Positions 5,742 to 12,800 of a stretch of DNA of 64,000 nucleotides are shown here, in pieces. The position numbers and the translations under genes are program-made. The notes beneath the pieces were generated by a model. It did not search any database. It saw only the letters and a list, made by a program, of their open reading frames with translations, and was not told where the DNA came from. Every line of letters begins with the position of its first letter. The first letter of the stretch is position 1. Origin of the DNA: Octopus vulgaris (taxonomy: Eukaryota); the NCBI GenBank assembly GCA_951406725.2, contig OX597831.1:40114001-40178000 (forward strand), given 5' to 3'.

Positions 5742-7028
5742 CGAGGGGCGTTCAATAAGTAATGCCCCTGATCCACTTCCCATAGCAGTAGAGCAACGAA
5801 ACTTGGCACAGTTATTAGTCTTTTTCTACATAGGAACCACCCAGAGTTACGCATTTTTTCCATCGTTTGATGCGGCTCTGGAGACCGTTTTTGTAGAAGA
5901 ACCCAGCTTGGTCCTCCAACCTCAGCGTGACTTCAGAAATCAAGGCTGCATCATCTGGGAAACGCTTTCCTTTCAAAAACAACTTCATGATTGGGAAGAG
6001 GTGAAAATCAGAGGGTGCAAGGTCAGGAAAGTAGGGGGGATGAGGAGGAGTTAATAGCCATACGCCTGTGCTTCTGATCTGGCGACAAGCGAGTTGTGGA
6101 CCGGAGCGTTGTCCTGCAGGAGGAGGATGCCTTTGCTGATCTTGCCCCGCCTCTTGATTTTGATAACTTCTCTTAATTTCCTCAAAAGTAAAGCATAATA
6201 GGCTCCTGCAATTGTGGTACCCTTTGCCAGGAAATCTGTCATCACTACTCCGTCCTGGACCCAGAAGACTGTGAGCATGACCTTGCCAGCGGAGGGCTGC
6301 ACCCTTGCCTTCTTTGGAGGGGGTGAGTCACGGTGCTTCCACTGCATTGACTGGGCTTTGGTCTCTGGATCATCGTGATGGACCCAGATTTCATCCTGTG
6401 TAATCAGTCTTTTGAAAAATTTTGACTCATCTTCTTGGCACATCTCCAAAATCACCCTCGAGCACTTGACGCGTTCTTGCTTCTGGAAAGGCGTGAGCAA
6501 CCTGGGAATCCATCTGGCAGACACCTTTTGCATATGCAAATGGTCGTGAATGATAGTTTCCACAGACCCGGTACTAATATTGACCTCATGGGCTATTTGG
6601 CGAATAATTATGCGTCGATCTTCCAAAATGGCAGCCTCAACTTGACGGACAGATTCCTCATCAATGGCAGAAGGGGGCGACCAGATCTGGGAGCTGTTTC
6701 CACAGAGTTCCGACCATGTTTGAATTCACGATGCCAGCGTTTTACAAGGTCATATGATGGGGCATCATCACCATAAGTTACTTTCATTTCATCAAAAGTC
6801 TCCCGTGGTGTGCGTCCTTTCAAATACAAAAACCGGATCACTGCTCGACACTCAACAGGCTCCATTTCACACTTGACTCGGTTCAAACACCTGTAAATCA
6901 GAAACCACAATTAGTTCAGAGCTGTAATTTGCCACTTACTCTATAGAGATATAAATGATTGCACATGCAAAATTTCAGCTAGATCAAACAACTGCAAGTG
7001 GGTCAGAGGCATTACTTATTGAACGTCC

Positions 7029-8279: not shown

Positions 8280-9309
8280 GTATGTAATTCTTAATAATGC
8301 TCTGCACATCACCCTTCTCCTGTTGTCTATATGCTGTCTATGTCTGTCTAATCTCTCCTGCTTTCTCTTTTGTTTAACTCATTAAGACCCACTGTCCCAT
8401 AAATAGGGCACTACGTGAGAACATTAAATAAGCTATATCACATAGTCTTTGTGTCCTATTTATAGGACACCAAGTATTTCCATTTCTACTTGAAGTAAAG
8501 GAGTTTTTTATTAATTTTTTTTTTTTTTTCCTTTTAACCTGTTTTCAATCATTTGTAAAAATTTGAAAGTAATTTTCAGAAATTTAAGTATCTGGAACTT
8601 CATGGGTTAAATGGGCAAAGGCAGTCCTTCTTTGTCCAGACCTAAGTATCCTAGTGTATGCCTGTGTGAAGAGGGATTCCTTACTGCACTGGAATTGAGT
8701 ATACTCAGCTCCGTGCATTTGCACGGAACTCATTTTTGATAGTGGAGTACTTTCTGGAATTTTATTTTTATTTATTTTATTTTATCTAGTTTCAGCTCAC
8801 AAGCTGTGGCCATGCTGGGGCACCGCCATTTGTCCGTTTTTTCATATGACATAGTACACACATTTCATTTTTATTTTATTTTTTTCTGGTCAATACAAAG
8901 AGGTTTACGAGAACTGATTTGCATATGATTAGCATGTTGCATTACCAGTGCATGAGATGTATTTAATCAGCACAATGAGTCCCTTAAAAGAATCCCTTGT
9001 GGTTAGTGCCATTAATGCTTGGGAATCATTGAAGATTAATGGTTGGGGATTTGATTTTGCCACAGGCAGTCAAAGACATGCTGTTCACAGCTTTCTGTGG
9101 GAGTGTTTGAAACAGCATTAGTGTCACCTCAGATAATCTTCGTTGACTACAGTAATTAAATAAGTATATAAATAGAACCACCAAGTGAATGAGTTTTTTT
9201 TTGTTAGATTTTTCTTTTCAAGAATCATCATGCAACCATTTTTCCATGCTTACGTGAGTCAGATGGAAGTTGTTGAGAAAGAATTTTCTGTGGCTGGATG
9301 CCCTTCCTC

Positions 9310-9505
9310 TTATTTCGTTATTGCCCACGATGGGCCGAATATAGAGGGGACAAACAAGGACAAAGGGATTAAGTTGATTGCATTGACCCTGAAAGGATGA
9401 AAGGCAAAGCCAACCTCGGCAGAATTTGAACTCAGAACGTAAAGACAGACAAAATACCACTAAGCATTTTGCCCGGCATGCTAACGTTTCTGCCAGCTTG
9501 CCACC
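9310..9505 (-). mobile_element. SINE family B copy forming the 3' part of the 28S-SINE chimera
   Basis: Minus strand GGTGGCAAGCTGGCAGAAACGTTAGCATGCCGGGC...GAGTTCAAATTC...GCCTTTCATCCTTTC...GGGCAATAACGAAATAA. Confidence 0.9.
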
Positions 9506-9511
9506 TTTAAA

Positions 9512-9870
9512 TATTGACGAGAGGCTGTACACCTTGGAGACCTGCTGCAGATGGTGGGACTGACTCAAGAGCTGTGAATCGTTACAGACCTGGATTTTCC
9601 AGGGCTGCCAAAAGCACACCAGACACCGCCCGAGACGCGGTGCTCTACAGGCACCATATCTGTATCTCTGAACAAGCCGATTCCACAGACGCGAATCTTT
9701 ACAAAGAAGAGGGAATTCTTCCCGGGGCTCCTGGCAACATCTTTGGGCTCGCTTGCATTGCCACTGCTTCGCCCAGCCACCAGCTTTGACGACGGACACG
9801 CTGCATTCCCGCCACCGGACGAGCACTCTCTGAGTTCGGGTTCGGGAATATTAACCCGATTCCCTTTCAC
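9512..9870 (-). pseudogene. 28S rRNA fragment (retrocopy, ~360 nt, 5' part of 28S-beta)
   Basis: Minus strand has conserved LSU blocks in order: GAAAGGGAATCGGGTTAATATTCCCGAACC ... GAGCCCCGGGAAGA ... AGCACCGCG ... GAAAATCC ... GCAGCAGGTCTCCAAGGTGTACAGCCTCT; GC-rich island with CpG-decay-like changes. Confidence 0.93.
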
Positions 9871-12800
9871 TGCCCTTCCTCATGCTAACCCTCACCTGTT
9901 TTCAAACAAGGTAATTTTTCCCTACAGCTAGACATGTTTTTGTGGAAGACTGGAAATGAATTTCCCTTGCTTGTAAGACAATGATGCTCACTTCCAAGTA
10001 AGGTTTCAAATTCTGGCACAAGGATAGTAATTTCCAAGGAGGGGATAAATTGATTACATCAACCTCAGTTCGCAACTGGTACTTATTCTATTGACCCTGG
10101 AAGGATGAAGGGCAAAGTGCACCCCAGTGACATTTGAACCCAGAACATAAAACCAGAAGAAATGTCACTAAACAGTTTGCCCAGCATACTACTTATTCTC
10201 TTTTCTTTACTGCCCACAAGGGGCTAAACATAGCGGGGACAAACAAGGTCAGACAAAGGAATTAAGTCGATTACATCGACCCCAGTGCATAACTGGTACT
10301 TAATTTATCGACCCCGAAAGGATGAAAGGCAAAGTCGAACCCGGCGGAATTTGAACTCAGAACGTAACGGCAGACGAAATACGGCTAAGCATTTCACCCG
10401 GCGTGCTAACGTTTCTGCCAGCTCGCCACCCTGAGTAAGATAAATATGGATTTCAAATTTTTAGCACAAAGCCAGCAATTTCGGGGCAGAGAATAAAATG
10501 ATTTCATCCACCCCAGTACTCAACTGGTACTTATTTTATTGATCCTGAAAGGAGCAAAGGCAAAGTCAATCCCAGCAGCATTTGAACCCAGAACGTAAAC
10601 TTGTAAGAAATGCCGGTAAGCATTTTGCCTGGCACACTAATGATTCTGCCAATTCGCCACCTTAAATAAGGTAAATATTAACGTATAAAAGCATGTCAAC
10701 TTAAAGCAGCAAATTTAACGAGCAGAATAATTACATTTAAGATTAACGAATAGTTAAGCTGTAGTATAAATAGATGTTAATTTATGCCCCATCTCGGTAC
10801 CATATTTACATGTAATATACATAAATATACATATGCCAAATTTATAGGATATTTAAACTAATAATATGAAACTTGGGTTAAATTAAGGGTTATTTAAACT
10901 AATTTTTAAAATTTTTAATTAAATTTTTTATTTCTTAAATCAATCCCTTCTCTTTCCCCCCCTTTCCTTTCTCTCAGCTGCCATATTCTTAAAGCACTTT
11001 GGGAGAATGGAGTGGGGCTGGAGGTGGATTAAATGTCCCTGTAGAGGAGGTAGCGTAGGTGGAAGTTAAATATAATCATGGAAAATATCTAATTCTGAAA
11101 ATATCCTTTAAATACACTGGAATTTTTTAAGAATATTTTAAACTTTTTTTTGGTTTTTTTCTGGAAGCTTCATTAAATGTACTGAACATCAAATACATAA
11201 ATTTTTTTTCTTTTTTATTAACAAAATGAAAATAAATTTGTTGGTAATTAGTGCGTTTGCTGAGTTAAAGTGGTTTTTAATGATGAGACTAACCAATAAC
11301 ATTACCTGCATCAATCACACCCCCTCCTTTCGACAGCTCCCATCTTCTCCACCTCCATCATTACCATCACCTGCTGTCATCAAAGATAATAATAATAATA
11401 ATCTTTTCTGCTATGGGCACAAGTCCTGAAATTTTGTGGGAAGGGGCAAGTCAATTAGATCGACCCTGGCACTCAACTGGTACTTAATTTATTGACCCCC
11501 AGAAGGATGAAAGGCAAAGTCGACCTTGGCGGAATTTGAACTCAGAACGTACTGGCAGACAAAATACCTATTTCTTTATTGCCCACAAGGGGCTAAACAC
11601 AGAGAGGACAAACAAGAACAGACAAACGGATTAAGTCAATTAGATCAACCCCAGTGCGTAACTGGTACTTATTTAATCGACCCTGGAAGGATGAAAGGCA
11701 AAGTCGACCTCAGCAGAATTTGAACTCAGAACGTAGTGGCAGACTAAATACCACTAAGCATTTCACCCAACGTGCTAACCATTCTGCCAGCTTGCCACCT
11801 TAATAATAATAATAATAATGGTGAAGACAATTACAGTTTGTTTGTCAAGAGAGTTCAAACTCCTGAAGAACTTAAATATTTTGGTTGTGAAAAAGAGAAA
11901 AACACGAGGGGGGAAAAAAAAGGAAAAAAATCAAGCAATTAAGTGGAAAAAATAAAAAAATGAAAACAGGGAAATTTTTCCTTTCCTCATTGACATACAT
12001 CAAATAAAATGTTACAAGACGTGACATGGAATTGGTGCAAGTGTGAGGACACAAAAGACATGATTTTTTTTTTTTTTTTTTGTAATTTGAGAAAAAAACG
12101 CCCCTTTTTTTAACAGTGCCATATTTGGAAATAGTTAAAAATTAATTTAGAATATATCCTAAGAAATATTTGGGTGTGTGTGTACATAGTGGTGGTGGAA
12201 GAAAGTGAGTGTAGATGGGTTTCCAACATGGAGAATTTCAATGAAGGAACAAATATGTAAAAACTGCCCCTACCATATAATATAAATTATACACACACAC
12301 ACACTTATAAGTATATATATATAGATATACATATACACGCATATATATATATATGCATGTATATGTTTGTGTGTATATATGATTATATGTTTACATATAC
12401 GCATATGTGTGTATATATATATATATTCTTGTTTCAGTCATTTGACTGTGGCCATGCTGGAGCACCACCTTGGAGGGTTTTAATCATACAGTATATATAC
12501 ACACACATACATATATATATGTATGTGTGTGTAAGTATTATTTATTTATTCTGTTTTTCTACGCATGTGTACATGTGTAGAACATTTCTGGAATTATAAA
12601 TATAAACAAACAAAAACTTTTTAAAAAAAACAATCATGCCCACTCTCTAATTAAATTTTAATTACCCACTGAAATTTGTTCTACTCCTTTATAGTTTCAA
12701 TTGCCACTAATTAGTAACAATTTTAATTCCTCTTTCAATAGGGGCTAATTCCAGTACCTTTCATGCATTTCTTTTAAGTCTTTTAATTTTTCTTTTAATT

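Follow-up and report, generated by a model that had tools for sequence, protein, structure and literature searches.

How a piece of 28S ribosomal RNA and a complete SINE came to lie end to end inside an older repeat, and whether the start of the rRNA piece records the protostome hidden break, are the questions raised by one insertion in the window (the whole 64,000-nt stretch of Octopus vulgaris DNA analysed here). The two copies of an 11-nt duplication enclose 561 bp (9310-9870; Table 1) and are the only exact matches to this 11-mer in the 64-kb window; with at most one mismatch there are eight matches, against 0.41 expected. Paralogs of the host repeat (2049 candidates, 40 of these scored, nine fetched) are collinear through a single copy of the insertion site in nine of nine cases. 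The duplication is therefore real and the flanks form one interrupted repeat, as the preliminary description of this DNA had proposed. For the insertion site in relatives, contigs of four runs compared with window positions 8700-10400 yielded repeat-derived pieces only, none of which crosses the site. No long coding frame related to the insert was found.

Table 1. Features of the composite insertion and its host repeat (positions in the window).
Feature	Position	Strand	Basis
Host repeat, left part (start approximate)	9225..9298	+	Collinear with paralogs L058-L066
Target-site duplication, SINE-tail side	9299..9309		Exact 11-mer; single copy in 9/9 host-repeat paralogs
Full-length abundant SINE (head 9505, tail 9310)	9310..9505	-	Aligns to 11-239 of a neighbouring copy; pairwise with L038
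A/T junction TTTAAA, 6 nt	9506..9511	-	Sequence; leaders of 31 full-length SINE copies
Decayed 28S rRNA piece	9512..9869	-	RF02543 match and alignment to own rDNA
Single base fitting neither rDNA nor duplication (G, minus strand)	9870	-	Comparison of junction, host and rDNA
Target-site duplication, 28S side	9871..9881		Exact 11-mer; same 9/9 paralogs
Host repeat, right part (end approximate)	9882..9997	+	78-86% matches, query 1-127, 39 other places scored

The 28S piece (358 nt) matches Rfam RF02543 with 120.5 bits (E 1.5e-29) and corresponds to rDNA positions 0 to +379, directly downstream of the D7a segment, where 0 denotes the C in the CGAAAGGG motif, or nt 2121 in a 28S of 4890 nt. It is 83% identical to the rDNA of this genome, carries deletions of 17 and 5 nt, and differs at 13 of 254 non-CpG and 31 of 104 CpG sites; three of the 13 non-CpG differences are older rDNA states common to many pieces. 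Bases 9870 and 9869 could together be a mutated extension of the duplication, giving a 5-nt microhomology with rDNA. Beyond the junction, the host reads the same five letters as rDNA does ahead of the CGAAAGGG motif, and the 28S-side join may therefore have arisen through microhomology.

The SINE has lost 32 nt internally, between two short direct repeats, and differs from the majority of 31 copies at 13 of 161 non-CpG and 12 of 33 CpG sites. Its tail is intact and the 28S part is in the same sense, with cellular RNA at the 5' side and retroelement at the 3' side. This minus-strand order of 28S, linker and SINE had been described correctly, although the "linker" is partly normal SINE leader: AA or TAA precedes the head in many of the 31 full-length copies compared, the last two to three junction letters being common in this position and the remaining ones likely untemplated. 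ARAGORN and Rfam found no tRNA within the insert; the SINE may be of tRNA ancestry, given A-box- and B-box-like motifs recognised by eye. At non-CpG sites the two parts do not differ in decay (13/254 vs 13/161, p=0.30), and since CpG decay is like that of neutral DNA, the window copy is dead.

Duplication, empty-site structure, similar decay and the finding of like composites joined at other points of the 28S make it likely that this 28S piece and full SINE, enclosed by one duplication, entered together in one LINE reverse-transcriptase event. The earlier proposal of a single retro-insertion thus stands, as does its remark that no separate duplication surrounds the SINE (the best exact match is 4 nt). 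Priming would have taken place on the SINE tail at the nicked host repeat. The enzyme would have read through the SINE RNA to its head, added a few untemplated A/T letters and switched to a broken 28S fragment at its 3' end, +379. Some 380 nt of 28S may then have been copied before the enzyme halted shortly ahead of the D7a stem-loop, and the cDNA joined to the target, perhaps via the 5-nt microhomology. End-to-end template jumping with untemplated additions is demonstrated for a non-LTR enzyme in vitro in the accessible text of PMC8594491. Genome-wide, the same process would sample free rRNA 3' ends.

Such joins recur. Of the 268 dispersed 28S pieces examined, 19 carry a same-sense SINE head directly at their 3' end, against 0.36 expected (one of the 19, L329, is doubtful because of a microsatellite at its join), and none has a sense SINE tail before its 5' end. 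The 19 joins fall at many different 28S positions, with enrichment at the 28S end, D7a and helix 88 (15/97 vs 4/171, p=1e-4); the window junction has no known break, and belongs to a small cluster (4/25 ends at 375-379). A duplication of at least 8 nt surrounds the whole composite in nine of the 19 and was absent from ten in that count, and L038 is a tenth chimera with a duplication, seen by eye across two loci. Junction letters are A/T-rich and variable (0-25 nt), and in L194 the 28S and the SINE head are joined through a 10-nt identity. Inverted twin-priming forms occur as well (L025, L109, L124). Opening letters shared by L025 and the window were considered as a common start, a reading that we rejected: in L025 they are readable as part of a longer duplication. 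Each chimera is most likely a separate reverse-transcriptase jump by an already known mechanism, and SINE-to-rRNA jumps are frequent in this genome.

Together with these recurrent joins, rRNA pieces that often stop at the same few spots mean that the genome likely records rRNA cut sites, for the most part at the 3' ends of the pieces. At the natural 28S end, the positive control (30 of 62 matches fetched, in list order), 16 of 33 nearby pieces stop at 2767-2770, the Rfam gene end being 2769, so the templates were mature RNA. At D7a, 3' ends lie in the loop for 40 of 58 pieces compared with 14 of 72 in the controls (p=1e-8), or 26 of 99 when two more controls are added (p=3e-7); the alignments break off at -54 to -60, in part owing to hypervariability of the loop, and the true ends are 0-20 nt inside it. 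The rDNA of this genome contains the helix-88 site motif, and at the top of that helix 33 of 71 pieces have their 3' end between 1940 and 1954 (24 of these within 1942-1945), against 9/130 (p=1e-10) and 15/157 (p=1e-9). The peak lies some 19 nt before the octopus-specific cut reported in the available part of PMC13321053, and at the edge of the search pattern, so that ends further upstream would be invisible. The end counts leave out pieces of at least 1200 nt, of which each set had 14-15, and the 0-2 rows per set that lacked an rRNA alignment; on reading, L121, L132 and L056 were reassigned from ending in D7a to spanning it, and L322 from starting after D7a to spanning it. Assembled contigs from two of four runs bridge the D7a region of the rDNA and the other two runs yielded none; contigs cannot show RNA ends.

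Many templates were uncut RNA or DNA, since 16 of the 58 pieces upstream of D7a reach or cross it and the 27 pieces on the 3' side of the helix-88 cut mostly (22) start more than 10 nt before it. Solo pieces rarely carry a duplication (3/42 at D7a, 2/33 at helix 88), so most of them may come from break repair rather than standard insertion; five (L029, L034, L039, L191, L218) fit tailless retropseudogenes. On the genomic sequence, the 3' pile-ups likely mark the natural 28S end, the one in D7a probably marks the end of 28S-alpha, and the one in helix 88 could well mark an rRNA end there. The hidden break seems to be recorded by the 3' ends of other pieces rather than by the start of the window's 28S piece. 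The larger reading, in which hundreds of independent 28S copies and SINE chimeras make the genome a readable and datable map of its rRNA ends (the mature end, 28S-alpha in D7a and a trimmed helix-88 end), is put forward tentatively. We found no mapped octopus 28S-alpha end in the literature searched, and a search that was thin on subscription journals gave no earlier study that infers break sites from rRNA copies in a genome.

The 3' pile-ups might instead reflect priming inside intact RNA, at single-stranded A-rich loops, as for tailless retropseudogenes, with no free ends involved. This alternative concerns the census only and not the one-event origin of the window's insert; we consider it a real possibility, albeit the lesser one. 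It is the mechanism preferred by Noll et al. in the text of PMC5322556 available to us, D7a is A-rich, and the five letters after D7a ends are 47% A compared with 29% elsewhere. An unbroken A-rich control was also clustered, with 5 of 13 ends within 10 nt (30 of 55 matches examined), and is indistinguishable from helix 88 (p=0.76). Against internal priming, pieces mark the natural 28S end with single-nucleotide precision, the letters after helix-88 ends are not A-rich (24%), and ends at a second control (-759; 14 pieces, 30 of 56 matches examined) are scattered. The SINE chimeras, which require a jump from a finished copy, prefer the same spots. At a further control, +1174, the R2 site confounds the count (7/13 ends at 1239-1247, with a 6-copy tandem array collapsed).

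For the chimeras themselves, a cut 28S fragment may first have been ligated to SINE RNA and the fused RNA then reverse-transcribed. Ligation and template switching give the same DNA, an identical same-sense product within one duplication, and nuclease-cut rRNA ends are plausible ligase substrates. However, the triphosphate 5' end of a Pol III transcript is a poor ligation partner, the variable A/T-rich junctions fit untemplated addition or oligo(A) tails, and the 10-nt identity in L194 fits a switch at the DNA level. We therefore regard ligation as unlikely, even if it is the alternative named for 28S/L1 chimeras in the consulted text of PMC13174262.

The preliminary description went further and had the enzyme run off the natural 5' end of 28S-beta, so that the boundary at 9869/9870 would be the hidden-break end itself. 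Starts just past D7a (-23 to +28) are mildly enriched over these 50 nt (10/23 pieces vs 37/182, p=0.018), and only 1 of 13 longer pieces starts between -97 and -22; L082 starts exactly at the published helix-88 cut, and L087 spans from -4 at that cut to just past the 28S end. The starts near D7a are, however, spread (-21, -18, -12, -10, 1, 1, 3, 8, 13, 17, 18 and 28, a row at -7 having been dropped because on inspection it spans D7a), independent pieces do not share one start nucleotide, and a narrower test is not significant (5/20 vs 19/154, p=0.16). L027 and L034, two solo pieces whose flanks are clearly not rRNA, begin further upstream than the window's 28S piece, at -10 and -12. An exact run-off is also argued against by the microhomology that may exist at the junction, by a GC-rich stem near the start that could stall the enzyme, and by the accessible text of PMC12880105 and PMC4671170, which puts the cut within the AU-rich loop of D7a, on the upstream side of the motif. 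No mapped octopus 28S-beta 5' end was found in the literature searched, no cephalopod names in the three supplement texts of PMC6925239 that were available, and no passage on a D7a gap in the available supplement of PMC13321053. Identity with the exact 28S-beta end, the strong form of the proposal, is thus unlikely, and the claim that the 5' end of the 28S piece marks the hidden break has weak backing. The stop of this copy possibly reflects a nearby 28S-beta 5' end, and is rather more probably a stall or an ordinary truncation.

Two successive insertions, a 28S piece with its duplication and later a SINE at its exact 3' edge, or the reverse order, are very improbable. Sequential cases exist, such as the antisense SINE inside the 28S piece L199, and a duplication at the element's own ends was found in only 2 of 31 SINE copies (about half of the 31 being chimeras or members of tandem arrays). 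Yet the excess of head-on same-sense joins over expectation, the lack of a SINE-specific duplication in the window and the equal decay of both parts speak against them. Membership in a 28S-headed SINE family, as once suggested, or an assembly artefact is scarcely plausible: L038 is a second chimera whose 28S join lies no more than 4 nt away, but it differs from the window insert in junction, start and deletions and shares no private non-CpG substitution with it (substitutions shared among pieces are older rDNA states in many unrelated pieces, not master-copy diagnostics), the SINE is present on only 2 of 25 dispersed pieces covering +347 to +371 (the window insert and L038), and 17% divergence, CpG decay and a clean duplication are unlike misassembled live rDNA.

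The nearest known systems are chimeras as well. In 28S/L1 chimeras, as far as the available text of PMC13174262 describes them, a few hundred nt of 28S (median 269) also lie 5' of the retroelement, mostly in the same sense, and are ascribed to one event of template switching or ligation; in octopus the partner is a SINE and the host a mollusc, and 3' junctions gather at the 28S end and two break-bearing loops, a pattern on which the text consulted has no statement. Accessible parts of PMC4476161 cover U6/SINE chimeras (U6-Mon-1 in platypus, U6-AnolisSINE2 in lizard and rare U6atac/Alu), in which cellular RNA was likewise copied after the SINE within one duplication, inverted twin-priming forms included. 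The human snRNA/Alu chimeras are described there as very rare, whereas the octopus acceptors are rRNA fragments and chimeras make up ~7% of the pieces examined.

Tailless retropseudogenes (PMC5322556, in the sections available) resemble the octopus pieces in lacking poly(A) and in 3' ends that gather at single-stranded regions. Only 10 human 28S cases with duplications are listed there and ascribed to internal priming, whereas most octopus solo pieces lack duplications and one peak is the true mature end. The window insert was considered as such a retropseudogene and rejected, its 28S 3' end being joined to a SINE. SINE28, going by the accessible text of PMC4994717, is also a dispersed 28S-derived sequence, and octopus too has pieces of the 28S 3' end; SINE28 is a proposed Pol III element from that end, while the window piece is internal and single-copy. 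The two loops with 3' pile-ups are the regions described for the protostome hidden break (PMC6925239) and octopus helix 88 (PMC13321053); the consulted parts of both studies use RNA, whereas the signal of our census is in DNA and its helix-88 peak is displaced from the published cut.

Taken alone, the window insertion is unremarkable, a dead chimera of a type already known, and the importance lies in the population of dispersed pieces. If 3' junctions mark real RNA ends, any assembled genome would offer a free map of rRNA cuts, including those of rare and deep-sea animals. Octopus would then keep the protostome break alongside the new helix-88 break, a common helix-88 product would end ~19 nt before the published cut, and the pile-ups predict where 28S-alpha ends in this animal. 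The oldest copies, down to ~80% identity, would date a break in species from which RNA is not obtainable, and would open a route to dating the helix-88 break, recently tied to translation accuracy. Frequent SINE-to-rRNA jumps are also a plausible nursery for rRNA-headed SINEs.

The window is part of contig C18 in the 2.8-Gb genome. The preliminary description of its insert (561 bp at 9310-9870, reading on the minus strand as a 28S rRNA piece, a TTTAAA linker and a SINE within an 11-bp duplication) was borne out as stated. The flanks are one older repeat, and all of the fetched paralogs (9/9) continue through one copy of the 11-mer site. The 28S part spans 0 to +379 of the rDNA with 83% identity; the differences are mainly CpG decay (31/104 CpG sites vs 13/254 other sites), and 3 of the 13 non-CpG differences are older rDNA states common to many of the dispersed 28S copies ("pieces") in the genome. 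The SINE is complete, with both head and tail, and the two parts of the insert show no difference in decay (p=0.30). At the 5' junction the host sequence goes on with the same five letters found before the motif in rDNA; we infer that the duplication may at first have measured 13 bp, with 5 nt of microhomology; two substitutions must then have followed, one of them a CpG change. The insert is likely a genuine 28S-SINE chimera of known type that arose in a single event and is now dead.

Landmarks and recurrent ends in window and rDNA coordinates (L, genomic loci)
Feature	Coordinates	Loci
Overlapping open frames, minus strand, resembling by eye a decayed mariner-type transposase	window 5815-6725	
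Cluster of more copies of the same SINE family adjoining the insert, minus strand like its SINE	window 10050-10600	
Zero of rDNA numbering, C of CGAAAGGG motif	nt 2121	
D7a variable loop, 27 distinct sequences of 21-58 nt	about -57 to -22	L002-L023, L033-L056, L319
Repeated 5' starts in 28S-alpha	-998 to -1000	L293, L301, L302
Repeated 5' starts in 28S-alpha	-926	L023, L046, L288, L296
5' end concentration	-160 to -200	L108-L152; spanning pieces e.g. L019, L043, L048
R2-site breaks	1225-1249	L078, L079, L081, L084, L089, L092, L094, L102, L103, L105, L156; L265, L282-L287
10-nt identity of helix-88 loop to the SINE's first bases	1951-1960	L194 (join passes through it)
Published helix-88 cut	1963/1964	
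Rfam 28S end	2769	
Secondary 3'-end cluster, 13 nt beyond mature 28S end	2782	L241, L249, L087
Secondary 3'-end cluster, 45 nt beyond mature 28S end	2814	L107, L254, L256, L334

A 28S-headed SINE family, also raised in the preliminary description, was not borne out. A genome-wide search with the 25-mer immediately upstream of the junction yielded 41 matches; among the 39 read, 2 of 25 dispersed pieces carry the SINE (the window and locus L038), and their junctions, starts and deletions all differ. A census at eight search sites yielded 268 unique dispersed pieces. Of these, 19 have the head of this SINE in the same sense directly behind the 28S 3' end, vs 0.36 expected; a sense SINE tail ahead of the 28S 5' end occurs in none of the 268. 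In 9 of the 19 the entire composite is enclosed by a duplication of 8-19 nt, with L038 a tenth by eye. Three further loci (L025, L109, L124) hold inverted joins of twin-priming type; L199 is a plain later insertion. The window's insert is one of many independent 28S-SINE chimeras. The same-sense joins and composite duplications fit a reverse transcriptase that would complete its SINE copy and then jump onto another RNA. Jumps of the same sort are described for U6/SINE and 28S/L1 chimeras in PMC4476161 and PMC13174262, and a template jump by an R2 enzyme was demonstrated in vitro (PMC8594491). RNA ligation ahead of copying may also be the source of such joins. In L038+L077, L026, L110 and L173, tandem repeats of SINE positions 59-239 (about ten in L038) come after the SINE, within the duplication where traceable; they would reflect either successive rounds of re-copying or a later expansion of the tandem at a short internal repeat.

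The insert's start had been read as a fossil of the hidden break, which separates 28S-alpha from 28S-beta. PMC12880105, PMC4671170 and PMC6925239 place the cut upstream of the motif, within the AU-rich loop of D7a, and 19-41 nt are excised there in two arthropods; we found no mapped octopus RNA end at D7a in the literature. Starts within 25 nt occur in 5/20 pieces covering +1 to +25 vs 19/154 at control sites (p=0.16), and, with a second search pattern, within about 50 nt in 10/23 vs 37/182 (p=0.018). They cluster loosely just downstream of D7a (-21 to +28), as expected if an RNA end were nearby or the enzyme stalled at the GC-rich stem. Two pieces clearly flanked by non-rRNA sequence begin at -10 and -12; if these derive from 28S-beta, the window's copy halted before the 28S-beta end. 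The stronger reading, in which the start marks the exact end, is not supported; the insert's start is plausibly near the 28S-beta end but probably not at it.

Other breakpoints recur. The 5' pile-up upstream of the motif holds 31/58 pieces, and its stretch matches a known cluster of 2'-O-methylated sites in yeast and human large-subunit rRNA; the pile-up could thus be a fossil of reverse transcriptase halting on modified bases, or of a further cut. At the R2 insertion site many rDNA-like copies break off and have foreign sequence to one side, among them dispersed ones and a tandem array on contig C29 (11 matches); these are R2-type elements and relics. L087 (contig C9) is an 820-nt piece that begins 4 nt ahead of the published helix-88 cut and ends 13 nt beyond the 28S end, possibly the third octopus 28S fragment copied in full, and L082 starts exactly at that cut. 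The two secondary 3'-end clusters may be intermediates of 3' ETS processing, or may mark where alignment to older rDNA gives out.

The 28S in this genome's rDNA is 4890 nt and contains the motif of helix 88, the octopus-specific break region, conserved among incirrate octopuses (PMC13321053). Matches are more numerous upstream than downstream of D7a (77 vs 39) and of the helix-88 cut (90 vs 48) because, as reading the loci revealed, many pieces end in the break regions. Ends fall within D7a in 40/58 dispersed pieces vs 14/72 in controls (p=1e-8), reaching 0-20 nt into the loop where traceable, and at 1940-1954 in 33/71 vs 9/130 (p=1e-10; 24 of the 33 at 1942-1945). Here and in the other tests the windows were picked after the data were seen, so the p-values serve as guides. 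As a positive control, 16/33 pieces near the 28S end stop at 2767-2770, two with A-tails; thus mature rRNA was the template, and natural 3' ends were retained to the nucleotide. SINE chimeras are enriched at the same three spots (8/18, 4/42 and 3/37, vs 4/171 elsewhere); the window's junction (+379) belongs to the "elsewhere" class.

Internal priming, by the mechanism in PMC5322556, is still a real rival for these pile-ups because an A-rich unbroken control clusters too (5/13 ends nearby; p=0.76 vs helix 88; 30 of 55 matches examined). In a second control ends were scattered (30 of 56 matches examined), and with both pooled in, the contrasts hold up well (helix 88 p=1e-9, D7a p=3e-7). The majority of solo pieces at D7a and helix 88 lack a duplication. 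Uncut precursor or DNA contributed as well, given that many pieces cross the breaks. The cut mapped in another octopus is about 19 nt downstream of the helix-88 peak, which lies at the search pattern's edge, where its upstream side is invisible; our guess is trimming back to the stem.

D7a loop sequence varies even between rDNA-length copies 98-99% identical, a very fast turnover, as an excised or unconstrained segment would show; this variation is a possible clock for dating copies. As a wider pattern, genomic copies appear to preserve the 3' ends of rRNA at the two loops that bear breaks; our literature searches found no earlier report of this, and the pattern is directly testable.
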